Assembly: GCA_001816655.1 (NCBI GenBank)
Contig: MHCP01000025.1
Location: 78,428-142,427, forward strand
DNA from: Candidatus Woykebacteria bacterium RBG_13_40_15
GTDB taxonomy: Bacteria; Patescibacteriota; Microgenomatia; Woykebacterales; RBG-16-39-9b
Reading direction: 5' to 3'
DNA: 64,000 nt
Shown here: positions 6,201 through 44,354 of the stretch, piece after piece
Layout of the letters: every line of letters starts with the position of its first letter
Position numbering within the stretch: the first letter of the stretch is position 1
The notes under the pieces: generated by a model
Seen by the model: the letters and a program-made list of their open reading frames with translations, nothing else
Databases searched by the model: none
What the model was told of the DNA's origin: nothing
Program-made: the position numbers and the translations under genes

Positions 6201-6263
6201 AAGGGTCAGCTGCAAACGTGGTTGGCCCTTCTGTCACATTTAATTGGTCGTTAATTTTTAGAT

Positions 6264-6953
6264 TTAGAATTTAAATTTGGCTACAAAATCGAAACTGCAA
6301 GTGCAAGGCGCATTTTTACAAACATGGCAATCATTAGAAAAAAGAGTTGAGAGTTCTTTTGAAACATCCACCTCAATTGAATTAAATACCCCCATCAGAC
6401 AGGAGTAAAGATCAGCTGCTTCTTTTGAAATTTTATCAAAATCCTCTTCTTTGTGCTGACCACGAAAAGTCAAGACGCTTTCAGAAAACTCGCCCAATTC
6501 TTCTGCCAGGTGAATACCCCCATGTTCCAAGCTCCTCTCCTCAGGAGGATAAATTCTCCTAAACATTTTTTGAAAGTCACTTAAAGTTGCTGGTTTCAAG
6601 GCCTTAACATTATTAGGAATGGATTTGCGTTTTTTAACCTTTTTCTCCTTACAGGAACATGGGCAAGTACTACAATAAGAGCAAAGATAAGGAAACCTAC
6701 TCCAAATTTCATCCTCAATTTGTATATGAAGATGGTTCATTATAGACATGAGCCAACTAAGTGAGAGTAAAAGATTAATTTTTGTTTTTTCCCGGTCTTT
6801 TTTTCGAATACCTTTCAGTCCCCTCATTGCAAATCTTTGTGTATTAGTCAGCAAGTTACCGACACTATAATTTCGCATATTGTGTAGACCATAGACTTGT
6901 TGAACGAAATCTTGGTATTCAGAAATTGTGCTATTAGGCTTAACCGATGGCAT
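6264..6953 (-). CDS. hypothetical protein with a MazG-like NTP-pyrophosphohydrolase motif and a Cys-rich insert
   Basis: IHLAEELGEFSE resembles the MazG EExGE metal-binding helix. CSYCSTCPCSC forms a Cys cluster. Confidence 0.35.
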   Translation of the reverse strand: MPSVKPNSTISEYQDFVQQVYGLHNMRNYSVGNLLTNTQRFAMRGLKGIRKKDREKTKINLLLSLSWLMSIMNHLHIQIEDEIWSRFPYLCSYCSTCPCSCKEKKVKKRKSIPNNVKALKPATLSDFQKMFRRIYPPEERSLEHGGIHLAEELGEFSESVLTFRGQHKEEDFDKISKEAADLYSCLMGVFNSIEVDVSKELSTLFSNDCHVCKNAPCTCSFDFVAKFKF

Positions 6954-11171: not shown

Positions 11172-11410
11172 AATCATTTGGCTCCAAAGACTTAATCAGA
11201 TGTTTGCTTTGTTTAAAGTTTAAAGAAGGCAAACAGGTAGCGTCATCTCACATAAAATACCATTGTCCTAAGAAAGCAGCTGTTGGAACCCGCCCATTCA
11301 TAACCGTTATTCTAGGTAGAAAAACGTATGATCCGGTAACTAGGGGTAGATATTTGAACCAAATGAAAAAACTGGGATACTCTCTTGAAGAAATAAAAAA
11401 GTGTATGTAG
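11162..11410 (+). CDS. HicA-like mRNA-interferase toxin
   Basis: ...SKDLIRCL...KQVASSHIKYHCPKKAAVGTRPFITVILGRKTYDPVTRGRYLNQMKKLGYSLEEI carries the conserved SH at the YcfA/HicA GSH-motif position and the C-terminal 'I..agls.eef' tail. Confidence 0.55.
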   Translation: MRMKSFGSKDLIRCLLCLKFKEGKQVASSHIKYHCPKKAAVGTRPFITVILGRKTYDPVTRGRYLNQMKKLGYSLEEIKKCM

Positions 11411-11441
11411 CTACTGTGTTTTAACAGAAAAAATTTTTCGC

Positions 11442-11477
11442 TGTAAATAAACAATGAGGGGGTTGGTTGTTTAAGGA
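11442..11477. repeat. Repeat family RepB, copy 3
   Basis: tgtaaataaacaatgagggggttggttgtttaagga. Confidence 0.7.
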
Positions 11478-11530
11478 AATTTTGCCAACGAAAAAGGGGC
11501 ACTCCTTGGTTGATGAGTACCCCTGTTCGT

Positions 11531-11815
11531 CTACTCCCCTTCGGCTGCCGATGATCTCTGTGAGATGTCTTCTCTTTTACGAAAGGCCTTCTCGATTTCG
11601 CTTCTTGCAACCCTCTCCCAGCGCTTAATCACGAAGGGTGTGATTATACCGAGTATCAGGACTACAACCAGCAAGACTAGTCCTACATGTGGCCGGAGGA
11701 ATAGGACAATCAATGTCCCGATTACGCTGCTGCATGTGCTAAAGAGCCAGAAACCCGTTAGCCTTTCTCTCGTTTGGGTTACCCTCTCTTCTTCTTTTCT
11801 CCTTGTCGTCATTGT
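11531..11815 (-). CDS. small two-TM membrane protein (about 95 aa) in a GC-rich segment
   Basis: This is the C-terminal part of the 229-aa ORF-track entry, starting at the internal MTTRRKEE. There are two clear hydrophobic helices. The upstream part of that ORF overlaps the 177-aa ORF out of frame. Confidence 0.3.
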   Translation of the reverse strand, partial: TMTTRRKEEERVTQTRERLTGFWLFSTCSSVIGTLIVLFLRPHVGLVLLVVVLILGIITPFVIKRWERVARSEIEKAFRKREDISQRSSAAEGE

Positions 11816-11853
11816 GGTTCTCCCTCTCCGCTTTCCCGACTCCTGTCCGCGTG

Positions 11854-12387
11854 TTACTGAGAGTGCTTTCTCCCAAAGAGGAGACGGGCGCCCAAGATAA
11901 CAAGAATAAGATGGGCAAGAATTGTTCCCTTTACTCCTCTGAATTGGGCTTCTCGTGCTTCCGGTTGCGGTGCCTCTGTTTGCAGGAGTTGCAATTGAGC
12001 TGCATCTACCATCACCGCTCTTACTGCTGTGCCCAAGGCGAGTCGGTAGACACAACCTCCCCCCACTACTACACAGACGACCGCTGCCAGCAAAAGCGCA
12101 GCCCCAAGGGAGTTCCCGGGATTGACGTGATTCTCGGAATCGAGAATCGTAAAGCCGAAGACCGTCAAGGCTAATGTTGCTGCGATTGTAAGCGAAATAA
12201 TGATAGGCAGGATTTTCCATTCGCGTCCGCCGCCTATATGCTCTTCATCTTCGGCTAACTGTTTGGCTAGACGAAGACGATCCGAGATTGGCAATTTCGA
12301 TGCCCCGACGATTGCCCTACTAAGTAGGGTTAGTCGGTCTAGGACCTCTGCCAACTCGATTTCATCCGAGTCCCTGGCGTTAACCAT
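11854..12387 (-). CDS. membrane protein (177 aa) in a GC-rich segment
   Basis: An acidic N-terminal region of about 50 aa is followed by three or four hydrophobic helices. Confidence 0.35.
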   Translation of the reverse strand: MVNARDSDEIELAEVLDRLTLLSRAIVGASKLPISDRLRLAKQLAEDEEHIGGGREWKILPIIISLTIAATLALTVFGFTILDSENHVNPGNSLGAALLLAAVVCVVVGGGCVYRLALGTAVRAVMVDAAQLQLLQTEAPQPEAREAQFRGVKGTILAHLILVILGARLLFGRKHSQ

Positions 12388-12548
12388 GGGATCACTTCCT
12401 TTCGCTACTGACTATTTCCTCTCCCTTTTCTTGAGTTATTTGCTGGATTTAATTGTGCTGTTTTTGATTGTAGCACAAGGATTTATTTTTTGGAAGTTAA
12501 GCGCTTATTGTGAGTTGGTTAGGGGTTGAACTCATAAATTTTATAACT

Positions 12549-12596
12549 GCAAGGACGGGCCTTGCAAGCTGACAAGCTCATAAAAGAAAAGGAGTA
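12549..12596. repeat. Repeat family RepA, copy 2
   Basis: gcaaggacgggccttgcaagctgacaagctcataaaagaaaaggagta. The shared tttttgatt(t)gtag block also appears upstream in both copies. Confidence 0.8.
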
Positions 12597-12640
12597 CCCC
12601 ACCACCTGTGTTTGGTAAGGTACTCCTCGCGTTCTCTCTC

Positions 12641-12817
12641 CTAGCTTCCTTGGTATTCTGGTCGGATTGCTATTATGAGCAGAACGGCCAGAACAGCGAT
12701 AATGACTACACTAAACACTGCAATCAGGGGAGGAAGAAAACAAACGGTCAAGCTGCTTAGAACGCCAGCAGAAAGACCTATCCTTATTAGTTTTATTTTC
12801 CACTGGATGTATTTCAC
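12641..12817 (-). CDS. possible small membrane protein (58 aa, GTG start), below the ORF-track cutoff
   Basis: Hand translation of the minus strand gives VKYIQWKIKLIRIGLSAGVLSSLTVCFLPPLIAVFSVVIIAVLAVLLIIAIRPEYQGS. Confidence 0.2.
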   Translation of the reverse strand: MKYIQWKIKLIRIGLSAGVLSSLTVCFLPPLIAVFSVVIIAVLAVLLIIAIRPEYQGS

Positions 12818-12904
12818 TTCCCTCCCCCTTCCTTGTGAGATATCAGCAGACCGATGGCTGCAAAAGCGGCGAAGAGTAAGACCGCTACTTGGTCTCGTCT
12901 TTTC

Positions 12905-13198
12905 TTACTTGCCGAAAGGGCCGAAGGAACATAGAGTCGGCAGGCTCCCTAAGGTCGTCGTTGTGGCTTCGGCTTTTCCGCATGCTTCCACCCGCGTGTT
13001 GGTTACCAGTTGATAACCACCGAAGACAAGCACTCCGGCTACTAGGATTACTCCTAGGTACCGAGTACCCTTCCTAGCCTTTTCGAAAAAGGCCTTCAGG
13101 CGCGGGCCGAAAGCCAGACCCAAACCGAGTAGTGCTACCAATCCAAAAAAGACCAGCAGCGTTAGGTTGCAGGAGTTGATTGCGATTGTTAAGAGCAT
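12905..13198 (-). CDS. small membrane protein (97 aa) in a GC-rich segment
   Basis: Two or three hydrophobic helices; MLLTIAINSCNLTLLVFFGLVALLGLGLAF... Confidence 0.3.
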   Translation of the reverse strand: MLLTIAINSCNLTLLVFFGLVALLGLGLAFGPRLKAFFEKARKGTRYLGVILVAGVLVFGGYQLVTNTRVEACGKAEATTTTLGSLPTLCSFGPFGK

Positions 13199-13685
13199 CG
13201 ATCTCTCCTTTCGATTTTTTGCTCTTTTCTAGAACCTGCCTGCTTGTAATTGTTACTAGTTTAAAATTATAGGGTGTAAAAGTCAATAGGTTTAGGGTCT
13301 ATGCTCTAAAATTGAGGCTAAAAAATGCTGTGGTCAATAACAAGGATCGGATTTTCTTCAAAAAAGGAAAAGGCAGACCAAAAAGATGCTTCATGCGAAT
13401 GCATCCGGCCTGCCCATCAGTCCGTGGGTGCTGGCTCTCTCTGTTGCGGTCCCTGATAAAGCTGGACTGCGCCTTATCTTCCACCGCGAGCGGACACCGC
13501 AGGTTTCGCGCGTAGCGGACGATCGCCTCTCTACTTCTAAGTAAGAGGCACAAATCGCTGGGCCCCTAGCAGTTAACTGCATCTGCAGATCGGTAGAGAA
13601 TACCGCTGCGTTGACCCATTTGCGCCGCGTTGTGCGAAGCCAGGCAAGTATAACAAAGAAAAGTAGGAAAGTCAATACTATGGGG

Positions 13686-14011
13686 TGCTGAGGTTGATTG
13701 GTGCACTGTATTAGATTTTACTTTAAGACTTTTTAACTGGCAAAAAGTATAAAAACCAAACAAACCAGAGTAACCAGAGTAAATCCTTCCAGTCTTGGGT
13801 TAAAATTCCTGGGATGCCCAAAAAACCGATAAATCCTAAAAAACCAAGTGTCCAGGTTTTTTTCATAATTTTATTATACACCGAGTTCCGAATCATGAGT
13901 GATGCTTGTCCTGAGCTAGTTCACACTGAGCTGAGTTTATCCTGAGCAGCTCGCAATGAACTCGCTGTGAACTGAAGTGAAGGGAAGTGAAGTAGGAGAA
14001 CTTTTAGTGCC
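13686..14011. repeat. Dispersed repeat family, copy B (long form, about 326 bp)
   Basis: The 5' end tactatggggtgctgaggtt and the 3' end gaagtaggagaacttttagtgcc match copies C and D. The internal cctgagc blocks match copy A. Confidence 0.6.
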
Positions 14012-14019
14012 TATATTTG

Positions 14020-14056
14020 AACAAAAGAAAACGGCGATAAGTTTCCCTATCGCCGC
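14020..14056 (-). terminator. Rho-independent terminator for the minus-strand gene ending at 14077
   Basis: The hairpin GGCGATA-GGGAAAC-TTATCGCC (minus-strand sense) is followed by GTTTTCTTTTGTT. Confidence 0.5.
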
Positions 14057-14076
14057 ATTCAGAATGTAACAATCCC

Positions 14077-14415
14077 TCAGTCCAGAGCCTCCCGATCACT
14101 GATAGAACGAACCAAGGGCCTGCCAAGGCGCGATGCCAGCACCATTTCGTGGGCAACAAAGCTGCCCATCGTCTCGATTAGGTCTATTGCTAATCGGCCT
14201 CTTGCTTCCGGGCTCTTGCATCTGCAGCTACAGATGATTGCTAGAAGAGCCAGATCCTCGGCCATTTGCCCTGCTCTCTCAGGGGCTATCGGTTCACCAT
14301 GGTTCAGAAACGATTCCCTCCGGGCCTCTTCGAGCAGCTCTCTTGCTATCGATATTATCTCCTGCTCGTCTTCACTTCTCTGAGCTTTGAGGCCCCTTCT
14401 GCCTCCATATCCCAT
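14077..14415 (-). CDS. hypothetical protein (112 aa), GC-rich
   Basis: ORF only. It contains a CSCRC cluster. Confidence 0.3.
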   Translation of the reverse strand: MGYGGRRGLKAQRSEDEQEIISIARELLEEARRESFLNHGEPIAPERAGQMAEDLALLAIICSCRCKSPEARGRLAIDLIETMGSFVAHEMVLASRLGRPLVRSISDREALD

Positions 14416-14457
14416 GGCAGTCTCCTTCTTTCTACTGGCGTTAGAATTACAAGTTGT

Positions 14458-14892
14458 TCAGCCCGCAGCAACCTTTGGTTTTACGCGTTTTAGATGAACT
14501 GGATGTATAAACCAGCTCATTGACCGAGCAAGGAAAACACACTTCTCGTCCTCTTTCCCGAAATCTACCAACACGTAGGTGGGGAAGATGGTTTCATTTT
14601 CCCTGACCATCATAGTCCATTCGGAAAACTCTCCGATAAGGCGGACATCATCACCGTGGTAGTACTGATGAAATGGGTCGCCCCAAGACTCCACTCCGTG
14701 GCGGTCGGGTGGTTCACTTGCAGGCTTCAGGCCAGATTTTTGCATGTAGATAGGTAAGCCGTCTGTACGGCCATCCGCATCATATGCCAGGACAGCCACC
14801 AAGCTGCCTTGGTCCGCCTCCACACGAAGGGTGGCATCCTGAAGGCGATCTATGAGCCTGAACAACTCTACTTTCGTGGGTTGATTCCGCAT
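14458..14892 (-). CDS. hypothetical protein (144 aa), GC-rich
   Basis: ORF only. It lies on the same strand as its neighbours with short gaps, which suggests an operon. Confidence 0.35.
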   Translation of the reverse strand: MRNQPTKVELFRLIDRLQDATLRVEADQGSLVAVLAYDADGRTDGLPIYMQKSGLKPASEPPDRHGVESWGDPFHQYYHGDDVRLIGEFSEWTMMVRENETIFPTYVLVDFGKEDEKCVFLARSMSWFIHPVHLKRVKPKVAAG

Positions 14893-14966
14893 TACTTGCT
14901 CCCTCCCTTCCTTGTGTACTATTAGCTGTTTCCCTACGAACTGCTGGCACAGTTTCTATACGCTAG

Positions 14967-15326
14967 CTACCTGACAGTTTTAACTTTCCATATACCAGAT
15001 CCTCTCGATGATGGTGCGACCAACAGGTCCCCACTTATAAGTGGCCTTGGTCGTAACCTGTTTGATATGTGTGTCTTAGGGCAGGCTAATCGAAACGAGT
15101 TCTCATTTCGTCTAGCTCGATATCCACAACCAATGTCAGTGTACACTTCCCGACCATCGGTTATCTCCGCGAGCTTACTAGAAGTAATCTCGGTATCTCT
15201 AGGTATTCTCGCAAGATTGCCGTACGTATAGTCAAAATCCCACTCTGTCAAAAGAATGGTAACCGGGTTTCTACTGGCCGTTTGTTGGGTTTTTTTGGCA
15301 AACCGCCCAAAGATCCTAGATAGCAC
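14967..15326 (-). CDS. hypothetical protein (119 aa), GC-rich
   Basis: ORF only. Confidence 0.3.
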   Translation of the reverse strand: MLSRIFGRFAKKTQQTASRNPVTILLTEWDFDYTYGNLARIPRDTEITSSKLAEITDGREVYTDIGCGYRARRNENSFRLACPKTHISNRLRPRPLISGDLLVAPSSRGSGIWKVKTVR

Positions 15327-15430
15327 AATCGTCTCCTTTCGAGTGTTAGAAATCTTTCTCCCAAAGCCGTCTAGGAACCTATTTAACTGTTAACGCAGAT
15401 GATTATACCAGAAAGGAATATAAAATCAAG

Positions 15431-15511
15431 TACTATGGGGTGCTAGGGTCGTCTAGTGTACGACGTTACTTGTCCTTCGTAGCTTTAGCGAAGTAGGAGA
15501 ATCTTTTGTGC
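15431..15511. repeat. Dispersed repeat family, copy C (compact complete form, 81 bp)
   Basis: tactatggggtgctagggtcgtctagtgtacgacgttacttgtccttcgtagctttagcgaagtaggagaatcttttgtgc. Confidence 0.7.
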
Positions 15512-15526
15512 AACAGCGCGACTGTT

Positions 15527-15555
15527 GACAGCTGTACACAAAAATGTAATACTGG
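15527..15555 (+). promoter_or_regulatory. putative sigma70-type promoter of the phd–relE operon
   Basis: TTGACA, then a 16-nt spacer, then TAATAC immediately upstream of the antitoxin start. Confidence 0.3.
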
Positions 15556-15559
15556 CACT

Positions 15560-15832
15560 ATGTCTACAAAAACATTACCTGTTACCGAAGCTAGGAAGAA
15601 TTTAACAGATTTAGTGGGCAAGGCCTCAAGTCAATTGGATGAATATGTTATTACCGTGAAAGGCAAACCAAAAGCAGTTCTGATAAGCGCTGTTGAATTT
15701 GAAGGATGGAAAGAAACAAATGAAATTTTATCCAATCCAAAACTCGTCAAAGCTATACATGAAGGTGAGGAAGACATAAAAGCTGGTAGGATTGTAACCC
15801 TCGAAGGCCTCAAAAAAGAGTTTCATGTATAA
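15560..15832 (+). CDS. Phd/YefM-family antitoxin
   Basis: MSTKTLPVTEARKNLTDLVGKAS...ITVKGKPKAVLISAVEFEGWKET has the canonical Phd/YefM N-terminus. Its stop overlaps the toxin start. Confidence 0.75.
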   Translation: MSTKTLPVTEARKNLTDLVGKASSQLDEYVITVKGKPKAVLISAVEFEGWKETNEILSNPKLVKAIHEGEEDIKAGRIVTLEGLKKEFHV

Positions 15833-16082
15833 ACTAATTCTTTCTGCAAGAACAAGAAAAGAATTAAAAAAAGTTCCCAAACAACATAGAGAAGCAATAC
15901 TTCTAGCATTAGATGAAGTTAAAAACGATCCTTTTGAGGGAAAACCTTTATCCCGAGAACTTATCGGTAGATTTAGCTACCGAGTTGGGGTCTATAGAGT
16001 TATTTACCAAGTGAATAAACAAAACCAAACTATTTATATTTCAACTGCCGCTCATAGAGGAAAGGTTTATAAAAGAAAGTAG
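15825..16082 (+). CDS. RelE/ParE-family toxin
   Basis: GKPLSRELIGRFSYRVGVYRVIYQVNKQNQTIYISTAAHRGKVY has the R(V)GDYR(V)IY...V..IGHR pattern. Confidence 0.8.
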   Translation: MYKLILSARTRKELKKVPKQHREAILLALDEVKNDPFEGKPLSRELIGRFSYRVGVYRVIYQVNKQNQTIYISTAAHRGKVYKRK

Positions 16083-16096
16083 TTAAAATCATTGGT

Positions 16097-16130
16097 TTCG
16101 TCTAATGTACGACGTTAGAATCTTTTGTGC
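16097..16130. repeat. Dispersed repeat family, copy D (partial)
   Basis: ttcgtctaatgtacgacgttagaatcttttgtgc reproduces the gtctaRtgtacgacgtta block and the atcttttgtgc 3' end of copy C. Copies C and D directly flank the phd–relE cassette. Confidence 0.7.
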
Positions 16131-16236
16131 GTATATTTAAAAATAGCTACTTAGCTTATCAGAATCTTAATTAATGAGTGGCTCTCTCCTTTCTCCATGA
16201 GAGTTCCACTCGGTAACAGGCTGATGCTTTGTCTGC

Positions 16237-16695
16237 TTAATCGGTTTGGGTAGTGCCCCCTAGATCCACTACTCGGACGAAACCAGTTTCGGAGAACAGT
16301 GTGAGGGGTAGGAGGCTATCGAACGATACCACCTTGAAACCCTCTCGAACCCCGATTGCCTCACCGCCCCAGAGACTAAGACGGACCCGGATCATGATCC
16401 AGCAGTATTCGAAAAGGAACCTTGTCTTTATCTCGAACTCTACTATCCGATCCGCTAACTCCATCTTAGCTTCATACGTGTTCGCTGCCTTGAGGGAACG
16501 TTCCGCCTCGGCGGCCTTCTCAAGGAAGAGAGAAGCGGCAGAAACCACTTCTATCTCATCCTCGATCAGATCGCCGACAATCCTTTCGCCTTGGCGAACG
16601 GGTGTTAGGATCGTGAGAGGCCTCCTTAGTTCCCTTCTCGGCAAGGGAACTGTGAATGGCAGTCTCTTTAGCCAACTACCTCTTCTTGTAGGCAT
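16237..16695 (-). CDS. hypothetical protein (152 aa), GC-rich
   Basis: ORF only. Confidence 0.3.
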   Translation of the reverse strand: MPTRRGSWLKRLPFTVPLPRRELRRPLTILTPVRQGERIVGDLIEDEIEVVSAASLFLEKAAEAERSLKAANTYEAKMELADRIVEFEIKTRFLFEYCWIMIRVRLSLWGGEAIGVREGFKVVSFDSLLPLTLFSETGFVRVVDLGGTTQTD

Positions 16696-16871
16696 AGAAA
16701 ACTCCTTCCTTCTTGCTCGCTCCTTTATTGTTATGGGATTATACCATAGTTATGGAATTTTTACTTTGTGTATTGGCCCAAAAATACTAGAATGACAATA
16801 ATAAAAGAAGAATATGTTAAAATGGTTGTTGTAACAACATAAATTGAAGATAAACACACCTTAAAAAGTGC

Positions 16872-28864: not shown

Positions 28865-30115
28865 CTAATTTTTATCCGTCAAAAACTGCTTCCCTCGCAA
28901 CTTTCTGTGGTAGCTAATAGCGAACCTATGAGCTTCGTCCCTCAATCTTTGAATTAACTTTAAAGCATCGCTATTTCTTGGCAAGATTAGAGGTTTACTT
29001 ATAATAGGTAAATATATCTGTTCAAATTTTTTTGCTAGAGAAATTACCTTACCGCTGAAACCTATCTTTTTAACTACTTTTAAGGTGGTATTTAATTGTG
29101 TTTTCCCCCCATCAACAACAATTAGATCCGGGGTGGGCCATTTGTTTTTAAATCGTCTTTCCAAAACCTCGTCAAGCATTGCTATATCACTTATTCCCCT
29201 TATAGTTTTTATTCTAAATCTGCGATATTCATTCTTGTCAGGCTCACCATTCGTAAAAACAATCATTGATCCGGTAGCTTGCTTTCCAAAAAGATTCGAT
29301 ACATCGTAACTCTCTATACGGACCGGTTTGCTGGCCATTCCAATATTTTTTGCAAGATCCAAAAGTTCCCTGTCATGAATATCACCAATTTCTTCTTCCA
29401 AATACTCGCTAGGATTGCGAGTTGGCCTAGTAATGTAAGAAACAGCTTCTATTTTATTTTTTATCTCCGAAGCTTTTTCATATTCCAACCGTTTCGAGTA
29501 GATTCCAAGCTCCCTATTTAACTTGCTTAAAACTTCCTTTTTCCTCCCTTGAAGAAAAAGTTTAAGCGAGGCAATTGTTTTCTTGTACTCTTTTTCGCTT
29601 ATTTTTCCAACACAAACGCCAGGACAAAGACCCAAGTGGTAACCTAAGCAAGCTCTTTTCATGCCCGGCTTACAATGAATTGAAAAAGGAAATATTTTTC
29701 TTAAGGCTTTCAAGGTCTCACGGACTTTATTTACGGAAGGAAAAGGACCAAAATAAATCTTTGCGTTCCCCAAATCCTTCTTTCTCGCCGTCAAGACTTG
29801 AGGAAATTGATCATTTGTAATTTTTATGTAGAGATAATCCTTATCATCTTTTAACTGAGAATTAAATGCAGGCTTGTATTTTTTTATTAAATTCGCTTCT
29901 AATAGTAAGGCTTCTATTTCTGAGTCAACTAAAATATCTTCAATTTTTTTTGTTTTTTCAATCAATGCTCCTTGCCGGTAGTTTGCGTCTTTCAAATCGA
30001 AATGATTCTTAACCCTCTTCTTAATATTTATTGCCTTACCGATGTAAATCGGCTTACCGCTGCCATCTCTAAAAATGTAGACGCCTGTTTTTTGTGGCAG
30101 TAAATTCAGTTGCAT
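28865..30115 (-). CDS. uvrC: excinuclease ABC subunit C (short form lacking C-terminal HhH)
   Basis: An N-terminal GIY-YIG domain (GVYIFRD...PIYIGKA...NH), a UvrBC region and a Cys cluster, then the RNase H-like endonuclease domain. It is 416 aa versus about 600 for canonical UvrC. Confidence 0.75.
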   Translation of the reverse strand: MQLNLLPQKTGVYIFRDGSGKPIYIGKAINIKKRVKNHFDLKDANYRQGALIEKTKKIEDILVDSEIEALLLEANLIKKYKPAFNSQLKDDKDYLYIKITNDQFPQVLTARKKDLGNAKIYFGPFPSVNKVRETLKALRKIFPFSIHCKPGMKRACLGYHLGLCPGVCVGKISEKEYKKTIASLKLFLQGRKKEVLSKLNRELGIYSKRLEYEKASEIKNKIEAVSYITRPTRNPSEYLEEEIGDIHDRELLDLAKNIGMASKPVRIESYDVSNLFGKQATGSMIVFTNGEPDKNEYRRFRIKTIRGISDIAMLDEVLERRFKNKWPTPDLIVVDGGKTQLNTTLKVVKKIGFSGKVISLAKKFEQIYLPIISKPLILPRNSDALKLIQRLRDEAHRFAISYHRKLRGKQFLTDKN

Positions 30116-34707: not shown

Positions 34708-37623
34708 CTAAAGCAGGCTCTTTAAATACTTGCCTGTGTAAGATGCTGTTTTTTTCGATAAATCAGCTGGTGCTCCAGTTGCAACTACTTCTCCGCCAAG
34801 GTCGCCGCCTTCGGGTCCTAAGTCAATTATCCAATCAGCAGTTTTAACAACTTCAAGGTTGTGTTCGATTACAAGAACTGTGTTTCCAGCATCAACAAGA
34901 CGATGAAGTACATCAAGAAGATTTTGGATATCCGCAAAATGAAGGCCAGTCGTCGGTTCATCCAAAATATAAAAAGTCTTTCCTGTACTCCGTTTGGAAA
35001 GCTCTGTCGAAAGTTTCACTCTCTGTGCTTCCCCACCAGAAAGTGTTGGAGCCGATTGACCAAGGCGGATGTAGCCTAATCCGACATCGGCTAAAACTTT
35101 CAATTTGTTGTAAATTGCTGGGATATTTTCAAAAAAATTGAGTGCCTCGACCACCGTCATACTCAAAACTTCAGCGATATTTTTTCCTTTGTACAAGATT
35201 TCAAGAACTTCTCTGTTGTAACGCTGTCCCTTACAAACTTCACAGGTTACATAGACATCCGGCAAAAACTGCATTTCAATTTTTACAGAACCCTCACCCT
35301 GACAAGCTTCACACCTCCCGCCTTTTACATTAAAAGAAAATCTGCCGGAAGAATACCCCCGCGTACGTGCTTGAGGAGTCTTCGAAAAAAGCTCTCTTAT
35401 ATAAGAAAAGGTTCCCGTGTATGTTACCGGGTTTGACCGAGGTGTACGTCCAATCGGAGATTGATCAATATCAACTACTTTGTCAATGTATTCCAACCCT
35501 TCCAACTTCTCATATTTACCTGGTTTATCTTTTGATCTGTAGAAATAAGAAGCTAAGGCTTTATGAAGAATTTCCTCGATCAGGGTTGATTTTCCACTCC
35601 CGGAAACACCTGTAACACAAACAAATTTTCCCAAAGGGATTTCAACTGTAATATTTTTGAGATTATGTTGCGCCGCTCCAAAGATAGTTAAGGTCTTTCC
35701 GTTTCCAGTCCTAGGGTTTCTGTTTGACGTAACAATTTTTTTACCTGAAAGGTATTGTCCTGTGATAGAAATCTCATTTTTAGCAATTTCTTCTGGCGTT
35801 CCAGTAGCAATTACTTTACCTCCAAGTTCCCCAGCTCCCGGCCCAATATCAACTACCCAATCCGCAGAAGTAATAGTTTCTTTGTCGTGTTCAACAATAA
35901 TTACACTGTTGCCTAAATTGCGCAACTCCTTCAGTGTATTGATAAGTTTCAAATTATCTCGCTGATGTAATCCAATCGAAGGTTCATCTAAAACATATAG
36001 AACCCCCGACAGCCCGGAACCGATCTGACTTGCTAGACGGATTCGCTGAGCTTCCCCTCCAGCCAAAGTGGCGCTGGAACGATCAATTGTTAAGTAGTCT
36101 AGTCCAACATCAAGTAAAAACTTAAGCCGTGCAGAAATTTCTTTTAAGACTTGTCTGGCAATTTGTTTTTCTTTTTCCGGAAGATCAAGGCCAGAAAACC
36201 AACTCGCGGCTTTTGAAATTGACAATCCTGATACATCAACAATTGATTTTTCCCCGATTGTAACGAAGAGTGCCTCTTTCTTTAACCTTGCTCCTCGACA
36301 AGTTTCGCAAAGCTCCTCCCGCATATATTTTTCGATTTCTCGCTTTGTCCACTCACTCTCTGTTTCTTTGTAACGCCTTGAAAGCTCTATAATCACACCC
36401 TCGAAAGTCGTATCAAAAGTAATTTGCCGACCAAAACGGTTTCTTCCAGTTACCGTGAAAACTTCCTCTTCTGATCCGAATAAAATTATTTCCAAGATAT
36501 TTTTTGGTAAATCCTTAATTGGCGTACTTAAGGAAAATCGGAGATGACCCGCCAAAGCTTCGAGCCGCCTAGAAGTCCAGGTATCATGTGCTAAAAGCCT
36601 TTGCCAAGGTAGGATTCCCCCTTCAGAGATTGAAAGGTTTTTGTTTGGAATTATTAAATCCGGATCGACTGTTAGCTTTGTTCCGATTCCCTGACAACTC
36701 TGACATGCCCCGTATGGAGAGTTAAAGGAAAATGTTCGGGGTTCCAGTTCCGGCAAGGAAATATCATGATCAGGGCAAGCAAAACGTTCTGAATAAACTC
36801 TATCTTCCTTACTCTCCAAATTATTGGTGTAAACTAAACCCTCACTAATCTTCAAAGCTGTTTCAACCGACTCCGTTAACCTCTGTTTATCAACAGGCCC
36901 GTCTACGACTCGACTGAGCTCGCTGAAGTCCGAAGAAGCAGGAAACTCAAGCCGATCAACAACAACATCAATGTTATGAATCTTGTATCGATCAAGGGCA
37001 GGAACTTCATCAATCTCATAAACTTTTCCATTCACACGAAGACGCACAAACCCTCGTTTCTTTAAATCATCAAAAACTTCTTCATACAACCCTTTCCTTC
37101 CTTTAACAACTGGCGCCAATATTAACAAAGTTTCCTTTTTATTTCTGCTTTCTACTATCCGCTTACTGTTCTCTGCTGACTGCTCACTGCTTACTGCTAA
37201 CTGTATCTGGTCCACAATTTCTTGCGGCGTCTGAGCGGTAATTTCTCGACCATCAATCGGGCAATGTGGATGTCCAATTCTTGCCCAAAGAAGCCGCATA
37301 TAATCATAGATTTCTGTAATAGTTCCAACCGTCGATCGAGGGTTTTTGGAAGCAGTTTTTTGATCAATTGAAATTGCCGGGGAGAGACCTTCAATCTGAT
37401 CAACATCGGGCTTTTCCATTAGCCCCAGGAATTGGCGTGCATACGCAGAAAGAGACTCGACATAACGGCGCTGGCCTTCGGCATAAAGGGTATCGAATGC
37501 TAGGGAACTTTTACCCGAACCAGATATTCCTGTAATAACAACTAGACGATTTTTCGGGATATCAAGGTCAACGTTCTTTAAGTTGTGCTCACGCGCTCCG
37601 CGAATAACAATTTTTTCTGACAT
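34708..37623 (-). CDS. uvrA: excinuclease ABC subunit A
   Basis: Two ABC ATPase modules (GISGSGKSS, GVSGSGKST), zinc fingers, and the start at MSEKIVIRGAREHNLKNV. The 57 upstream codons on the ORF track run into a GC-rich non-coding block and were excluded. Confidence 0.9.
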   Translation of the reverse strand: MSEKIVIRGAREHNLKNVDLDIPKNRLVVITGISGSGKSSLAFDTLYAEGQRRYVESLSAYARQFLGLMEKPDVDQIEGLSPAISIDQKTASKNPRSTVGTITEIYDYMRLLWARIGHPHCPIDGREITAQTPQEIVDQIQLAVSSEQSAENSKRIVESRNKKETLLILAPVVKGRKGLYEEVFDDLKKRGFVRLRVNGKVYEIDEVPALDRYKIHNIDVVVDRLEFPASSDFSELSRVVDGPVDKQRLTESVETALKISEGLVYTNNLESKEDRVYSERFACPDHDISLPELEPRTFSFNSPYGACQSCQGIGTKLTVDPDLIIPNKNLSISEGGILPWQRLLAHDTWTSRRLEALAGHLRFSLSTPIKDLPKNILEIILFGSEEEVFTVTGRNRFGRQITFDTTFEGVIIELSRRYKETESEWTKREIEKYMREELCETCRGARLKKEALFVTIGEKSIVDVSGLSISKAASWFSGLDLPEKEKQIARQVLKEISARLKFLLDVGLDYLTIDRSSATLAGGEAQRIRLASQIGSGLSGVLYVLDEPSIGLHQRDNLKLINTLKELRNLGNSVIIVEHDKETITSADWVVDIGPGAGELGGKVIATGTPEEIAKNEISITGQYLSGKKIVTSNRNPRTGNGKTLTIFGAAQHNLKNITVEIPLGKFVCVTGVSGSGKSTLIEEILHKALASYFYRSKDKPGKYEKLEGLEYIDKVVDIDQSPIGRTPRSNPVTYTGTFSYIRELFSKTPQARTRGYSSGRFSFNVKGGRCEACQGEGSVKIEMQFLPDVYVTCEVCKGQRYNREVLEILYKGKNIAEVLSMTVVEALNFFENIPAIYNKLKVLADVGLGYIRLGQSAPTLSGGEAQRVKLSTELSKRSTGKTFYILDEPTTGLHFADIQNLLDVLHRLVDAGNTVLVIEHNLEVVKTADWIIDLGPEGGDLGGEVVATGAPADLSKKTASYTGKYLKSLL

Positions 37624-38173
37624 ATTTTTCTCCAAAACAAGCCCGAAAATTTTACACCTTTTAGCAAATTTGCGCAACTCCCTATGTAAGATAATTTGAC
37701 AAGGGCTTGGCTGTTTTGTAGGATAAACCCATTGGAGGGTCAGGTCTGCGGTGCGGATGGCTGCAATCTTGTAGCTAGCTTGCTTCGCTAGCATCGCTGG
37801 TCAAAGATCAGAAGAGTGTGGTTGGATCAGCGGTCGTGCAAGCAGGGGCAGACTTCAAGCCCAGCGGCGAGGCTCTTCCCACGCCAAAGAGACCTCGCTG
37901 ACCATTACGCTCAAGAAGGAAGTCGTTTGAGATCGGTGGCTTTGCTGTCGATAGCGCACCTCGAGCGACAGTATACCCGCCACAGATGGGCAGGAGAAAG
38001 GGCTCTCGTCTCTTTAAGCGCTGTACGAGAGCCCCTTGACAAGCATAAGGCAAATTAAGTAATATACTCCGCAGCCGAAGACACAGGAGAAGAGAGAAGC
38101 CGGCGGTCCTCGGAACAGGGTAGGGGGGGGCCTAAGCCGGTCGATCGTCGGCTCCTGTAAACATCAGAGAGGG

Positions 38174-38236
38174 GTCGGGTGTAGCACGGGAGTCAGTGCC
38201 TCCCAAGGTCGGTGGTTCAAATCCATCCACCTCGAC
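38174..38236 (+). other. tRNA-like minihelix (acceptor-like stem plus anticodon-like hairpin plus T arm, no D arm)
   Basis: GTCGGGTG...GGGAG-TCAGTGC-CTCCC...GGTGG-TTCAAAT-CCATC-CACCTCGAC. Confidence 0.35.
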
Positions 38237-38342
38237 TAGACAAGGACCGCAAGAGAGGTCAGGTCCAGAGGGTGTCCTGTTGCTGATGATGCAGGTTAAC
38301 AAGACAAGCCATCAGCAAAAACCCTCACCAAGTTCAGATAGG

Positions 38343-38398
38343 TCTCGGGGATGCCACAGAATAGGTAGATCTGTTGGTTCGAATCCAACTCCCCAAGA
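38343..38398 (+). other. tRNA-like minihelix (acceptor-like stem plus T arm)
   Basis: TCTCGGGGA...GTTGG-TTCGAAT-CCAAC-TCCCCAAGA. Confidence 0.35.
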
Positions 38399-38417
38399 CA
38401 AGATCAGACGGAACGGT

Positions 38418-38494
38418 GGGTGATTAGCTCAGACGGTTAGAGCAGCAGCCTTATAAGCTGTACGTCGCAGGTTCGAGTCCTGCATCACCCACCA
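38418..38494 (+). tRNA. tRNA-Ile (anticodon TAT)
   Basis: Acceptor GGGTGAT/ATCACCC, D arm GCTC/GAGC, anticodon stem GCAGC/GCTGT with loop CTTATAA, T arm GCAGG-TTCGAGT-CCTGC, CCA encoded. A UAU anticodon is uncommon in bacteria. Confidence 0.7.
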
Positions 38495-38514
38495 CAATCA
38501 AAAGGTTGGAGATC

Positions 38515-38589
38515 ACCCCCGTAGCTCAGAGGTAGAGCGGCGAGCTGTTAACTCGCAGGTCGGTGGTTCAAGTCCATCCGGGGGTACCA
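38515..38589 (+). tRNA. tRNA-Asn (anticodon GTT)
   Basis: Acceptor ACCCCCG/CGGGGGT, anticodon stem GCGAG/CTCGC with loop CTGTTAA, T arm GGTGG-TTCAAGT-CCATC, CCA encoded. Confidence 0.8.
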
Positions 38590-38611
38590 ATCAACAAGGA
38601 CAGAGACAATA

Positions 38612-38685
38612 GGGGGATAGTTTAACTGGCAAAATGGTAGCCTGTTACGCGACAGTTGTGGGTTCGAATCCCCCCTCCTCAGCCA
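38612..38685 (+). other. tRNA-like element with TTCGAAT T-loop but an unpaired acceptor
   Basis: GGGGGATAGTTTAACTGGCAAAATGGTAGCC...GTGGG-TTCGAAT-CCCCC...GCCA. I could not fold it into a cloverleaf. Confidence 0.3.
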
Positions 38686-38692
38686 ATCACTT

Positions 38693-38768
38693 GCTCCCCC
38701 TTCGTCCAATGGCAGGACACCCGTAAAACATACAGGTTATGGTGGTTCGAATCCATCGGGGGGAGCCA
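38693..38768 (+). other. tRNA-like element (8-bp acceptor GCTCCCCC/GGGGGAGC, D-like and T arms, degenerate anticodon loop AAAACAT)
   Basis: GCTCCCCC...GTCC-AATGGCA-GGAC...GGTGG-TTCGAAT-CCATC...GGGGGAGCCA. Position 33 is not U, so this is likely a pseudo-tRNA. Confidence 0.3.
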
Positions 38769-38850
38769 ACCACTTCTAACAGCTATACCAATTAACTTTC
38801 AACTAATCGCCATTGACAATGTACAACTTGTGGTACATTATTTTATTGAG

Positions 38851-39705
38851 ATGGAAAACCCTAAAGAATTAGAGAAACAAGCTGATAGCTTACGTAACAA
38901 TGGTCGGGGACTAGCGGCTATTGAGAAATATACACAAGCCGCAACCCTTTACGAGCAACAGGAAAACAAAAAAGAAGCAGCCGAATGCTGGCATATGGTA
39001 GGTGTTAGTTACAAAGTTGAAAATGATATTAACCATGCCATTGAAACTCTTGAAAAAGCAGCAAAACTTCATAATACAGCTGGAAACCAAGTTGGTGTCG
39101 GGCGTGTTCATCGGGATATAGGAATCGCTTACGCTTATCACAAAGAGCACGACAAAGCCATCGACTGGCTTGAGAAAAGTGAAAAAGTCCTACGAGATAG
39201 CGGCGATTATGCGGAACTTGGAATCACAGAAGCAAAAATTGGTAAACATTATCTTGAAATAAATGATTACAATAAAGCAGAACAGTGGTTACAAAAGGGT
39301 CTTTCTACAATTCGTAAAGAAGGGCACTGGTTCTACGAAATGACCACCTTGCTACATTTTGGTACGTTTTATCTTGCACGAAAGGACTTCGGGGCTGCAG
39401 CTACAACTATCTGGGCCGGCATTGGGTTAATTTATCAAGCTGGTGCTAAAAAAACTCAGCAACGTCGCCTCGCTCAGCTTTACGGTCTTTTGGCCCAAAG
39501 TTATCTTGGACTAAATAATCCAAAATCTGGTGCAAAGTTTTTTAAAAAGGCTATGGATTTGCTTACCCCAATGGATTCTAATGTTTCGGCAGTAGTTTAC
39601 GAGGATATAAACGCACCGCAATTTGTAAAGCTAATCAAAAAATCCTCTCCCGAAAAGCATAAAAAACTAACCAAAGAAATAAAGTTAAATAAATTACTAC
39701 CCTAG
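38851..39705 (+). CDS. TPR-repeat protein
   Basis: The 34-residue periodicity with A/G/Y positions (AAECWHMVGVSYKVEND..., AIDWLEKSEKVLRD...) is visible. The start is at MENPKEL; the upstream ORF-track extension overlaps the tRNA-like array. Confidence 0.65.
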   Translation: MENPKELEKQADSLRNNGRGLAAIEKYTQAATLYEQQENKKEAAECWHMVGVSYKVENDINHAIETLEKAAKLHNTAGNQVGVGRVHRDIGIAYAYHKEHDKAIDWLEKSEKVLRDSGDYAELGITEAKIGKHYLEINDYNKAEQWLQKGLSTIRKEGHWFYEMTTLLHFGTFYLARKDFGAAATTIWAGIGLIYQAGAKKTQQRRLAQLYGLLAQSYLGLNNPKSGAKFFKKAMDLLTPMDSNVSAVVYEDINAPQFVKLIKKSSPEKHKKLTKEIKLNKLLP

Positions 39706-40300: not shown

Positions 40301-42346
40301 TTAGATTTTAAATTTCCTGGCCTCTTTCACACTGATTGTTTTTGGGATCTCTAATTCTTGGTTTTTTATTTCCTGTATTTGATCCCGCAAAAGCGCAGCC
40401 TTTTCGAAATCCATTATTTTTGCAGCTGATAACATTTCTGCCGTCAAGTCTCTAATTAACTTTTTAACCTCCTCCTTTGGTACTTTTGTTAAATCAAGCT
40501 CGGCAGTACTTTCTACCTCTGGCTGCAACTGACGAACCCGCTCACCTATATCGTGAATTGCTTTTTCGATAGTTGATGGGCTAATTCTATGTTTCCTATT
40601 GTATTCTACTTGAATTTTTCGTCTTCTATTTGTTTCGTCAATTGCTCCCTTAATGCTTTTGGTAATGGTGTCCGCGTACATTATTACCCTACCTTCAACG
40701 TGTCTGGAAGCTCTGCCGATTGTTTGGATTAGGGATGTTTTACTTCTTAGAAACCCTTCTTTGTCGGCGTCCAAAATAGCAATCAAAGAAACCTCTGGCA
40801 AATCCAAACCTTCGCGTAGCAAATTGATTCCAACCAACACATCATACTTTCCAGTTCGCAAATCGCGTAAAATATCAACCCGCTCTAGTGTATCAACCAT
40901 ATAATGAATGTACATTACTTTCATATCTCGCTCAGCAAGATAATCTGTTAAATCCTCTGCCATTCGTTTAGTAAGTGTCGTAACAAGTACCCTTTGTCCT
41001 TTTCCAACTCTTTTTTGAATTTCGCTAATTAAATCAGGTATTTGTCCTTCTGTCTTTTTCACTTCAATTTCTGGATCGACTATCCCTGTCGGTCGAATTA
41101 TCTGCTCTGCAATTCCGTTATTCTTCGAGAGCGTCAATTCATATTCGTCTGGTGTTGCACTGGTAAAAATAATCTGTCCTGTTTTTTTCAGGAACTCTTC
41201 GAAAGTCAAAGGTCTATTGTCTATTGCGCTGGGGAGCCTAAATCCAAAATCAATCAGCGTGTTTTTTCTGGATCGCTCACCATACCACATTCCTTTAATT
41301 TGTGGAACGCTCATGTGAGATTCGTCTATAAAAGTGGCAAAGTCTTTTGGGAAGTAATCTAACAATGTAAAAGGCGGTTCCCCCGGTTTCCTTCCATCAA
41401 AATATCGAGAGTAATTTTCGATCCCCTTAACGCTTCCTACTTCTTTGATCATTTCTAAATCGTACTTAACCCGACTTGTTAGCCTTTGAAGCTCAACCAG
41501 CTTGTTTTCTTTTTTTAGCCTGCTACTTACGGTTTTAAACTCTCTTTTAATTTCTTCAAGCGGATCGTAAGGTAAGTTGATAGGAACATTGTAGTGCCGA
41601 GCTGGAAAAATGGAAATTTCTTCAAGATCTTCGATTTTCTCCAAACTGGTTGAATCAAGTTTTGTAATTTTCTCAACTTTTTCTCCGAAGAATGAAACTC
41701 TAACGACAAATTCTTCGTAAGCTGGGTAAATTTCCAACGTATCGCCTCTTACTCTAAAGGCCGCTCTTTTTAAATCCAAATCGTTTCTTTCATACTGAAG
41801 GCGGATTAGCTGTTCCTTAACTTGATTTAAAGTAATCGGCTGCACATTGAAGAGGGTCAGAATACTCTGTCTGTACGCATCGGGTGAACCAATGTTGTAG
41901 ATGCAGGAAACAGAAGCAACAATTAAAACGTCTCGCCTAGTTAAAAGCGCTTTTGTCGCGGCTAGACGTAGTCGATCGATCTCATCATTTATGTCCGAAT
42001 CCTTTTCAATATAAAGATCAATTTGCGGAACGTAAGATTCGGGCTGGTAATAATCATAGTAAGAGACAAAGTATTCTACGGCATTGTTTGGGAAAAATTC
42101 CCGAAATTCACTCGCTAGTTGCGCCGCGAGGGTTTTGTTATGCGCAATAACCAATGTTGGGCGGTTTACTTGCGCCACAATATTAGCCATCGTAAAAGTT
42201 TTACCTGTCCCAGTTGCACCAAGCAGTGTCTGAAATCTGTAATTTTTTTCCAAGCCTTCAACTAGTTTTTTGATCGCCTCTGGCTGATCTCCAGTCGGCG
42301 GCCATGGCGCTTTTAAATCGAATTTATCCATCTTGTAATTATACAC
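40301..42346 (-). CDS. uvrB: excinuclease ABC subunit B
   Basis: PTGDQP, Walker A GATGTGKTFT, DESH box, a C-terminal helicase domain and a UvrB-type C-terminal coiled-coil. Confidence 0.9.
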   Translation of the reverse strand: MYNYKMDKFDLKAPWPPTGDQPEAIKKLVEGLEKNYRFQTLLGATGTGKTFTMANIVAQVNRPTLVIAHNKTLAAQLASEFREFFPNNAVEYFVSYYDYYQPESYVPQIDLYIEKDSDINDEIDRLRLAATKALLTRRDVLIVASVSCIYNIGSPDAYRQSILTLFNVQPITLNQVKEQLIRLQYERNDLDLKRAAFRVRGDTLEIYPAYEEFVVRVSFFGEKVEKITKLDSTSLEKIEDLEEISIFPARHYNVPINLPYDPLEEIKREFKTVSSRLKKENKLVELQRLTSRVKYDLEMIKEVGSVKGIENYSRYFDGRKPGEPPFTLLDYFPKDFATFIDESHMSVPQIKGMWYGERSRKNTLIDFGFRLPSAIDNRPLTFEEFLKKTGQIIFTSATPDEYELTLSKNNGIAEQIIRPTGIVDPEIEVKKTEGQIPDLISEIQKRVGKGQRVLVTTLTKRMAEDLTDYLAERDMKVMYIHYMVDTLERVDILRDLRTGKYDVLVGINLLREGLDLPEVSLIAILDADKEGFLRSKTSLIQTIGRASRHVEGRVIMYADTITKSIKGAIDETNRRRKIQVEYNRKHRISPSTIEKAIHDIGERVRQLQPEVESTAELDLTKVPKEEVKKLIRDLTAEMLSAAKIMDFEKAALLRDQIQEIKNQELEIPKTISVKEARKFKI

Positions 42347-43736: not shown

Positions 43737-44354
43737 ATGCCTCCAGTAATTTACAAGAGAGAACGCGATCTTTTAGACTTCATTTCCCAGTATATGCAGA
43801 AAAATGGCTACGCACCCACCTTGGCTGAAATCTGCGATGGTTTAGGTTTACGCTCCCCCGCCACAGTCCACGAACACATCCAAAATTTAATCGATAAAGG
43901 AGTTTTAAAGAAGGACGAGGGTGTTCGCAGAGGTTTGGAAATAGTTGATCAAAAGGTTATGGGTTGGGTGCAGAGTGCTGTTGAAATTCCTCTCATCGGA
44001 AGGATTGCCGCTGGTGCACCGATCGAAGCAATCGAGGATTACACGTCTGCGGTAACAATTCCACCAGATATGGTAGGAAAGAAAAAATGCTTCGCTTTGC
44101 AGGTAAGGGGAAACAGCATGATAGAAGCAGCTATTTTAGATGGTGACTTTGTAATCTGCGAAGAAGCAACTGATGCAAATAACGGAGAAATAGTAGTCGC
44201 TCTTGTTAATGACAATTTTGCTACCCTAAAGAGATTTTTTCGCGAAGCCGACCACATTCGCCTAGAACCAGCAAACTCTTCCATGAACCCGCTAATTACC
44301 AAGAATGCAACAGTGAGAGGTAAGGTCGTCGGGGTCGTGCGTAAATACCACTAG
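43737..44354 (+). CDS. lexA: LexA repressor (S24 peptidase)
   Basis: N-terminal wHTH, a cleavage-site region, the S24 Ser motif in VRGNSMIEAAILDGDFVI, and a Lys in ...GKVVGVVRKY. Confidence 0.8.
   Translation: MPPVIYKRERDLLDFISQYMQKNGYAPTLAEICDGLGLRSPATVHEHIQNLIDKGVLKKDEGVRRGLEIVDQKVMGWVQSAVEIPLIGRIAAGAPIEAIEDYTSAVTIPPDMVGKKKCFALQVRGNSMIEAAILDGDFVICEEATDANNGEIVVALVNDNFATLKRFFREADHIRLEPANSSMNPLITKNATVRGKVVGVVRKYH

Follow-up and report, generated by a model that had tools for sequence, protein, structure and literature searches.

The region described here lies between uvrA and a gene with tetratricopeptide repeat (TPR) domains in a genome of Candidatus Woykebacteria, a lineage of the Candidate Phyla Radiation (CPR), within a window of 64 kb (the whole stretch of DNA analysed; contig MHCP01000025.1). 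Between the start of uvrA and the TPR gene about 1.2 kb are without a credible open reading frame (ORF) and hold two canonical tRNA genes, four further tRNA-like elements and other predicted RNA structures (Table 1). An earlier reading made from the letters alone (hereafter the sequence-only reading) had described a GC-rich block at this place, and this is borne out by windows of 200 nt over 37700-38800, which have a GC content of 0.495-0.60, compared with 0.32-0.475 in the flanks and 0.415 in the 64-kb window as a whole. The 5' part had been said to lack a convincing ORF, and indeed no ORF of 37630-38420 is common to any of the relatives introduced below, also when compared with tblastx against all of their corresponding regions. 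It is well supported that the block is a cluster of RNA genes native to this CPR bacterium, modular and specific to its lineage.

ARAGORN finds four plus-strand tRNAs in the block, namely Ile(tat), Asn(gtt), a second Asn(gtt), here called Asn2, and Val(aac), here called element F. Three of the four are supported by the Rfam tRNA model (RF00005, gathering score 29 bits), and Val(aac) has no match at E<=10. Taking a score above 29 bits together with an ARAGORN call as membership of RF00005, the family includes Ile-UAU, Asn-GUU and Asn2 but not element 1, element E and element F. Of the ten occurrences of the motif GGTTCRARTCC in the window, where 0.16 would be expected, six fall inside the block; the T arms at 38211-38227 and 38373-38389, which have no tool call, belong to two short elements. 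The two good tRNAs (Ile-UAU and Asn) of the sequence-only reading are thus confirmed by both tools, the four T arms that it quoted are all present where it placed them, and its view that the surrounding elements are tRNA-derived was correct. Its description of these elements as four arm-defective minihelices holds for element 1 and element E, which are the only truly short ones (about 55-63 nt, one arm missing in each), and not for Asn2 and element F, for which ARAGORN builds full, if imperfect, cloverleaves.

The UvrA protein of the window is 100% identical to that of Candidatus Woykebacteria bacterium RBG_13_40_15. Further we compared the region with eight relatives in which the slot between uvrB and uvrA could be recovered (loci L084-L087, L089-L091 and L093; UvrA 72-91% identical). 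The order lexA, uvrB, slot, uvrA, PAS histidine kinase, response regulator, transglutaminase-like gene and uvrC is common to the window and to all eight. In every relative the slot contains a TTGACA-type promoter followed by a GC-rich region of RNA without ORFs, with an intrinsic terminator in most. None of these slot RNAs matches an Rfam family, and those that were folded (L087, L086, L090, L093 and L089; Table 1) exceed shuffled controls in stability. They are of several types which share modules, and each genome has a content of its own; in nucleotides the coding sequences of uvrA are 70-80% identical between these genomes, and the slot is mostly unalignable save for the shared modules and the core of the type named type-1. 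This core is found in L084, L085, L087 and the metagenomic contig L088, has a consensus structure of 71 pairs including a 20-bp hairpin, and constitutes an unclassified structured RNA family. The modules of the window are shared out among the relatives, with element F in L087 and L088, element E together with module D in L084, and module D together with module C in L089. Running ARAGORN on 60 unrelated uvrA loci revealed no comparable association with tRNAs. It should be noted that a scan for contigs by UvrA gave, among the matches listed, other phyla only (55-61% identical, unusable for synteny), and that a search with the 173-aa protein of the window gave only contigs shorter than 1 kb.

The copies of element F in L087 and L088 are 76% identical to that of the window, have an identical anticodon loop and also end in G73-CCA; the L087 copy adjoins a homolog of the window's gene for the 173-aa protein. 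Both the D arm and the loop AAAACAU are invariant in the three copies, and at four pairs (two in the acceptor stem and two in the T stem) both sides have changed with the pairing kept. In the alignment 95% of the cells are paired, which was matched by 8 of 500 shuffles, and slid controls reached at most 51%. The loop carries A33 and not U33 in all three copies (U33 is present in Ile-UAU, Asn and Asn2) and the formal anticodon is AAC, hence element F is unlikely to be a decoder. The label tRNA-Val(AAC) given by ARAGORN is formal only and does not denote a decoder of valine. The acceptor and D arm are tRNA-Glu-like when set against the E. coli tRNA-Glu sequence.

Element E is called by neither ARAGORN nor Rfam and has an MFE (minimum free energy) z-score of -2.2. 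Its homolog in L084 (70.8% over 89 nt by blastn) has retained both the acceptor and the T stem, one pair of the latter through a compensatory change, and the linkers are unalignable. As E is kept at 71% and F at 76% in a slot that is mostly unalignable, between genomes whose uvrA is only 70-80% identical in nucleotides, the two elements seem to be under selection, and the pattern points to selection for the acceptor/T-arm fold. A second and weaker E-like element (…CCUAUAGGUUCUAAUCCUAUCUCCCAAGCC…) lies at ~2500-2560 of L084 (minus strand), just before another terminator and 3' of a small ORF; this hints that E-like minihelices are a repeated feature of transcript 3' ends. Module D is common to L084 and L089, where RNAalifold keeps both of its helices with compensatory changes at three pairs. 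For module C a probable homolog is found in L089, closed by the helix AUCAGGAGC/GGCUCCUCUGAU, the homology being moderate and seen in two sequences.

Table 1. Positions of the features discussed, in the window and in the uvrB-uvrA slots of relatives (z: z-score of the minimum free energy).
Feature	Locus	Position	Strand	Remarks
uvrA upstream region, promoter/5' leader	window	37627-37677	-	conserved; edge of variable slot
P1, sigma-70-like	window	37696-37724	+	TTGACA-17-TAGGAT; consensus scan 10/12; putative function
RNA-1, GC-rich non-coding segment	window	37733-38035	+	ends in 13-bp hairpin 37997-38037
P2, sigma-70-like	window	38036-38065	+	TTGACA-18-TAATAT; consensus scan
Module C, 5' structured leader	window	38072-38167	+	predicted closed domain; closed by ACAGGAG/CTCCTGT
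Element 1, 63 nt, tRNA-derived	window	38176-38238	+	bulged acceptor stem, one internal arm, T arm GGTGG-TTCAAAT-CCATC
Module D, hairpin	window	38268-38326	+	outer helix GAGGGU/ACCCUC, inner helix UGCUGAUG/CAUCAGCA
Element E (minihelix 2)	window	38343-38398	+	acceptor-like stem, short arm, T arm GTTGG-TTCGAAT-CCAAC; no CCA
tRNA-Ile, anticodon UAU	window	38418-38494	+	ARAGORN; Rfam 72.8 bits; CCA encoded; perfect cloverleaf MFE, z -3.56
tRNA-Asn, anticodon GUU	window	38515-38589	+	ARAGORN; Rfam 70.8 bits; CCA encoded; cloverleaf MFE
Asn2, degenerate tRNA-Asn(GUU)-like	window	38610-38685	+	ARAGORN Asn(gtt); Rfam 35.5 bits; CCA encoded
Element F, tRNA-like cloverleaf	window	38695-38768	+	ARAGORN Val(aac); no Rfam call; G73 and encoded CCA
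TPR-gene promoter	window	38813-38841	+	consensus scan; 3' edge of RNA block
TPR gene	window	38851-39705		TPR domains confirmed
uvrC	window	28865-30115
uvrA	window	34708-37623	-
uvrB	window	40301-42346
lexA	window	43737-44354
Element F homolog	L087	4126-4199
Element F homolog	L088	2320-2393
Element E homolog	L084	~3005-3058	-
Module C probable homolog	L089	5530-5385
Type-1 RNA	L087	4050-4482	-	type-1 RNAs: ~250-300 nt, own promoter
Type-1 RNA	L085	3165-3468	-
Type-1 RNA	L084	3168-3470	-
Type-1 RNA	L088	2036-2284	+
Slot RNA	L087			z -7.15
Slot RNA	L086			z -6.25
Slot RNA	L090			z -4.0
Slot RNA	L093			z -3.2
Slot RNA	L089			z -2.3
Mini-ORF/terminator tail	L085	~3105-3160	-
Mini-ORF/terminator tail	L087	~4055-4125	-
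Mini-ORF/terminator tail	L084	~2930-3000	-
Mini-ORF/terminator tail	L089	~5230-5290	-
Other slot RNAs	L086	4365-4775; 3040-3400	-	other slot RNAs: 400-570 nt
Other slot RNA	L090	6362-6900	-
Other slot RNA	L091	~5990-6590	-
Other slot RNA	L093	4935-5505	-
Peripla_BP_6 gene	L084	3506-4831
Peripla_BP_6 gene	L085	3506-4831
Peripla_BP_6 gene	L087	4521-5807
Peripla_BP_6 gene	L089	5571-6872

The plus strand showed no intrinsic terminator from 38036 up to the TPR-gene promoter, and one transcript from P2 would therefore cover this part of the block. The whole RNA/tRNA operon is probably driven by P2. The L089 slot RNA has a promoter and start to which three parts of the P2 region can be aligned (the -35 element, the sequence TAGTAATATAC and the bases transcribed first), though weakly (blastn 73.5% over 34 nt, E 0.029). 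A 'GCAAATTTTGACAA' context like that of P1 is visible in L086, L091 and L093. The RNA-1 segment upstream of P2 ends in a hairpin that corresponds to the inverted repeat I4 (92% complementary) and has an MFE z-score of only -1.95. It has no Rfam match at E<=10 and no homolog in any fetched locus, and nhmmer found no match between it and the type-1 slot RNA. Within 37624-38340, blastn similarity to relatives is confined to 37627-37677, upstream of uvrA (86-92% to L084, L085 and L086), and this conserved stretch could also hold a LexA operator.

In several of the loci the transcript 3' end has a recurrent design. In L084, L085, L087, L088 and L089 a Shine-Dalgarno-like run is followed by a mini-ORF of three codons that abuts the terminator, reading UUG AAG GUU/GUC/GUA stop in the first four of these loci and AUG GAA AUC stop in L089. 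That third positions of codons vary and that TAG is exchanged with TAA suggests that the mini-ORF is translated, and it may be a ribosome-dependent control of termination. The window has no such tail of mini-ORF and terminator; the TPR gene is found there instead. In both L084 and L087 a tRNA-like module follows the structured core and precedes the terminator-bearing 3' tail.

We suggest that the block is a native RNA operon in which the conserved tRNA-like modules are used as processing handles, a composite explanation towards which we are evenly balanced between belief and doubt. P2 would drive one polycistronic transcript with module C, element 1, module D, element E, tRNA-Ile, tRNA-Asn, Asn2 and element F. 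In bacterial tRNA precursors RNase P cuts the 5' side and the 3' side is trimmed, and an acceptor/T-arm mimic within the same precursor is a potential substrate. Elements E and F would then be recognition handles for RNase P and for 3'-end processing by RNase Z or exonucleases, and cuts at E and F, perhaps also at element 1, would free the structured modules C and D along with small tRNA-like RNAs. In L084 and L087 a cut at the tRNA-like module would set where the core RNA ends on its 3' side; the junction of core and tail, where the module sits, is just the place at which one would look for a signal for 3'-end processing. The analysis shows the anatomy, the chromosomal context, the modules shared with relatives and the compensatory changes; what we infer in this scheme is the co-transcription, the processing and a role of the released RNAs.

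The locus is a variant of a known principle, that of tRNA-like elements inside non-tRNA transcripts. In MALAT1/mascRNA (RF01684), in the haloarchaeal tRNA-like element upstream of 5S rRNA and in mitochondrial tRNA punctuation, an acceptor/T-arm mimic is situated within a longer structured transcript at an end-forming junction, and E and F have this anatomy in the window, L084 and L087. Our locus differs from that group in being bacterial (CPR) and in having its mimics mixed with genuine tRNAs in one operon, and its processing is supposed. There is no sequence kinship with mascRNA, which scores 17.5 bits (gathering score 42.5) with the match on the real tRNA-Asn. Long arrays bearing pseudo-tRNAs in bacteria and phages, such as the cyanobacterial trn cluster, likewise have their tRNAs in tandem with short spacers and an encoded CCA, and mix canonical with aberrant members; here only two genes are canonical, the cluster is joined to structured modules other than tRNAs and lies in a conserved chromosomal slot, and aberrant members are kept in relatives where the canonical ones are missing. 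The bacterial Y RNA YrlA (RF02553) is likewise a non-coding RNA with a tRNA-like module, but it reaches 24.6 bits (gathering score 69) with a match that spans two real tRNAs, and the Pfam scan of the flanks showed no rsr/Ro gene. A bolder version, which we put forward tentatively and consider rather doubtful, is that in Woykebacteria the uvrB-uvrA interval holds a fast-evolving modular locus of non-coding RNA, in which unclassified structured RNAs are put together from shuffled modules and punctuated by minihelices for RNase P/Z, as a bacterial counterpart of MALAT1/mascRNA. Element F would in that case be a conserved non-decoding derivative of tRNA-Glu whose loop AAAACAU has a function of its own, and such loci might perhaps exist in other CPR bacteria.

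Several points weigh against the processing model. Cleavage by RNase P/Z is purely a supposition. Two of the three copies of element F are nearly identical; the metagenome scan with the F anticodon-arm pattern gave a single contig (L088), which is nearly identical to L087. The covariation rests on two or three sequences per module. The blastn match of module C to L089 is weak (E 0.029), and the nhmmer scores are self-matches by construction. For the leader of the window the gain in folding over shuffles is modest (z about -2). CCA is absent from E and present in F, so that the two may not share one role, and since element 1, Asn2 and RNA-1 have no homologs nothing shows that these function. 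Moreover, Ile-UAU and Asn are in none of the slots of the eight relatives, and the presence of the good tRNAs in this slot is a recent rearrangement.

The most serious competing explanation, somewhat unlikely in our judgement, is that the four odd elements are non-functional tRNA pseudogenes produced by duplication, partial deletion and recombination, with a conservation that reflects recent common descent only. Element 1 resembles an initiator/Met-type tRNA with one arm removed, its T-arm region being identical to that of such tRNAs in viral contigs, and Asn2 has mismatches in three stems (acceptor, anticodon and T), an MFE fold that is not a cloverleaf and a z-score of -0.49, no better than shuffles. 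Neither has a homolog in relatives, and the slot is prone to rearrangement with contents that differ per genome. Against this, element F remains paired at 95% after four two-sided changes with its 7-nt loop and D arm invariant, E keeps its acceptor and T stems amid unalignable linkers, and neutral DNA between these genomes cannot be aligned, with uvrA itself being only about 80% identical. The pseudogene explanation therefore seems plausible for element 1 and Asn2, which are more probably decaying tRNA duplicates, and less so for E and F. The tRNA-like elements might also act in trans as tRNA mimics and not as processing signals, which we find improbable. The loop of F, where the Asn codon AAC is followed by A, might kiss the GUU loop of tRNA-Asn, and element 1 might offer an acceptor like that of tmRNA or tRNA-Ala, with a G.U third pair and A73. 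The complete conservation of the loop AAAACAU in three copies whose stems vary, the complementarity of AACA to UGUU of the tRNA-Asn loop, the G73-CCA end as in a chargeable tRNA and the likeness of the 3' end of element 1, CCACCUCGACUA, to the tmRNA consensus CCACCUCCACCA are in keeping with such a role. However, a complementarity of four base pairs is weak evidence, F occurs in L087 and L088 with no tRNA-Asn nearby, element 1 is far below the tmRNA threshold and without homolog, and no partner protein is encoded nearby.

Two further explanations call on mobile DNA. The 3' ends of tRNA and tmRNA genes are classic integration sites, and the partial elements could be scars of integrative elements that recombined there and duplicated the T arm and acceptor end; the segments from T arm to 3' end do form repeat families in the block (D1 and D2), and the slot content is different in every genome. 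Yet E and element 1 each possess an internal arm and, on the 5' side, an acceptor strand that matches, neither of which an att duplication gives, and no integrase is found in the slot of the window or of any relative, which makes scars the least probable of the explanations considered. Scarcely more credible is an origin of the block as a phage or plasmid tRNA array inserted beside uvrA and bringing tRNA-Ile(UAU) with it, as the sequence-only reading had proposed. Viral contigs with a tRNA-Ile(UAU) of the same anticodon arm are abundant (at least 120), and both the good tRNAs and the adjoining TPR gene are missing from the slot of the eight relatives. But the block is flanked by core genes in the same order as in these relatives, no integrase, phage or plasmid gene was found in the flanks, and the genes there (uvrA, uvrB, uvrC, lexA, Lon, Nramp, PFOR and similar) do not mark a mobile element. 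Searching 50,697 phage and 72,556 plasmid records with blastn gave generic tRNA similarity only, with matches confined to the tRNA bodies (query 712-998; 72-82%) and to unrelated tRNAs (Arg, Trp, Gly/Asn). Among the matches listed, the best viral one to tRNA-Ile is 89% over 56 nt in contigs preselected for the exact anticodon arm, the best to tRNA-Asn is 82%, and there is none to modules D, E and F, for which module-specific patterns also gave 0 matches in IMG/VR although these modules lie in the chromosomal slots of relatives. The other tRNA clusters of the window are equally GC-rich, so that high GC is a mark of structured RNA and not of foreign DNA, and CCA is encoded in all 13 tRNA calls of the window; high GC and encoded CCA are properties of this genome's RNA genes, with which the block agrees, and not signs of import. 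The alternative that the block is conserved and native in relatives, also raised in that reading, applies to the modules, which recur at the same position, and not to the two good tRNAs, which are not seen there.

To return to element 1, it is called by neither ARAGORN nor the Rfam tRNA model and ends in A-CUA in place of CCA. With the tRNA-like domain of tmRNA (RF00023) it has in common the UUCAAAU T loop, the 3' strand CCACCUCG-A, the G.U third acceptor pair and the lack of an anticodon function. It differs in having no tag reading frame or pseudoknots and CUA at its end, and the model gives 8-13 bits for its 3' half (13 and 8.4 bits against a gathering score of 47), covering only T arm and acceptor. 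Its likeness to the 3' halves of initiator/Met tRNAs is equal to that to tmRNA, and ARAGORN calls no tmRNA in the window or relatives. In one register the third acceptor pair is G.U in both Asn2 and element 1, an identity position of tRNA-Ala and tmRNA; this may quite possibly be coincidence.

Other known RNAs were also considered. The 10-mer GGTCAGGTCC, which according to the sequence-only reading also occurs in E. coli 4.5S RNA, is indeed present at 38258, and the likeness to this signal recognition particle (SRP) RNA is limited to it, as the Rfam models have no SRP match at E<=10 on 37550-38900. Candidates for RNase P RNA picked by eye, a GAAAGUCC-like motif in L086 and a GGGGUGCCGGCUUA-like one in type-1, belong to simple helices, local or long-range, and are without Rfam support. 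By-eye candidates for SRP RNA, 6S RNA, a two-piece tmRNA, T-box, ROOL/GOLLD, YrlA and C/D-box/K-turn RNAs found no Rfam support. The 5' GC-rich part is not a remnant of the Peripla_BP_6 gene of the relatives, for which tblastn found nothing.

The two canonical tRNAs are ordinary translation components. In 19 genes of the window AUA makes up 27% of the Ile codons (20.2 per 1000 codons), and as the codon is this frequent an efficient reader of AUA is needed; it is plausible that tRNA-Ile(UAU) decodes AUA in this genome. This may be the lineage-specific decoding solution that the sequence-only reading named as its other option. Few bacteria encode a UAU anticodon for Ile in the genome, a rarity that the sequence-only reading had remarked on, and it is known from a few bacteria without tilS, namely Mycoplasma mobile, Bifidobacterium and Neorickettsia (PMC3575796). 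The present case has the features of M. mobile-type systems in that the genomic tRNA-Ile(UAU) is otherwise canonical, the bacterium has a small genome and AUA is frequent. The M. mobile type is further defined by the lack of tilS and tRNA-Ile(CAU) and by an IleRS adapted to UAU. No TilS or IleRS is among the scanned proteins of the 64-kb window, which has no bearing on the rest of the genome. A literature search on CPR bacteria with lysidine or tRNA-like elements found nothing relevant.

The tRNA-Asn gene has A1-U72 as first pair and A73 as discriminator, the E. coli tRNA-Asn having U1-A72 and G73, and this may bear on direct versus transamidation synthesis of Asn-tRNA in the lineage.

Regarding the neighbouring genes, uvrC, uvrA, uvrB and lexA lie within 16 kb in the window. 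A Peripla_BP_6 gene with 48-52% GC (about 41% in uvrA) is located between uvrA and the slot RNA in L084, L085 and L087, and one is also found in L089; the window has neither the gene nor a remnant. In L091 and L093 the slot RNA is preceded by a small gene of about 100 aa. Elsewhere in the window, ~11400-16700 contains GC-rich patches (0.47-0.55) with short overlapping ORFs, and 12387-14458 has no ORF of at least 120 aa; one more non-coding stretch, or one acquired recently, may be present here.

Element F serves as a warning for annotation, as the Val(AAC) call by ARAGORN is misleading. The slot between uvrB and uvrA would be a source of unclassified and highly structured RNAs, with z-scores down to -7, and a tRNA-Ile(UAU) in an AUA-rich CPR genome bears on how AUA and AUG are discriminated in reduced genomes. 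If the handles are real, CPR bacteria would mature non-tRNA transcripts by means of tRNA mimicry, which is documented mainly in eukaryotes, archaea and organelles.

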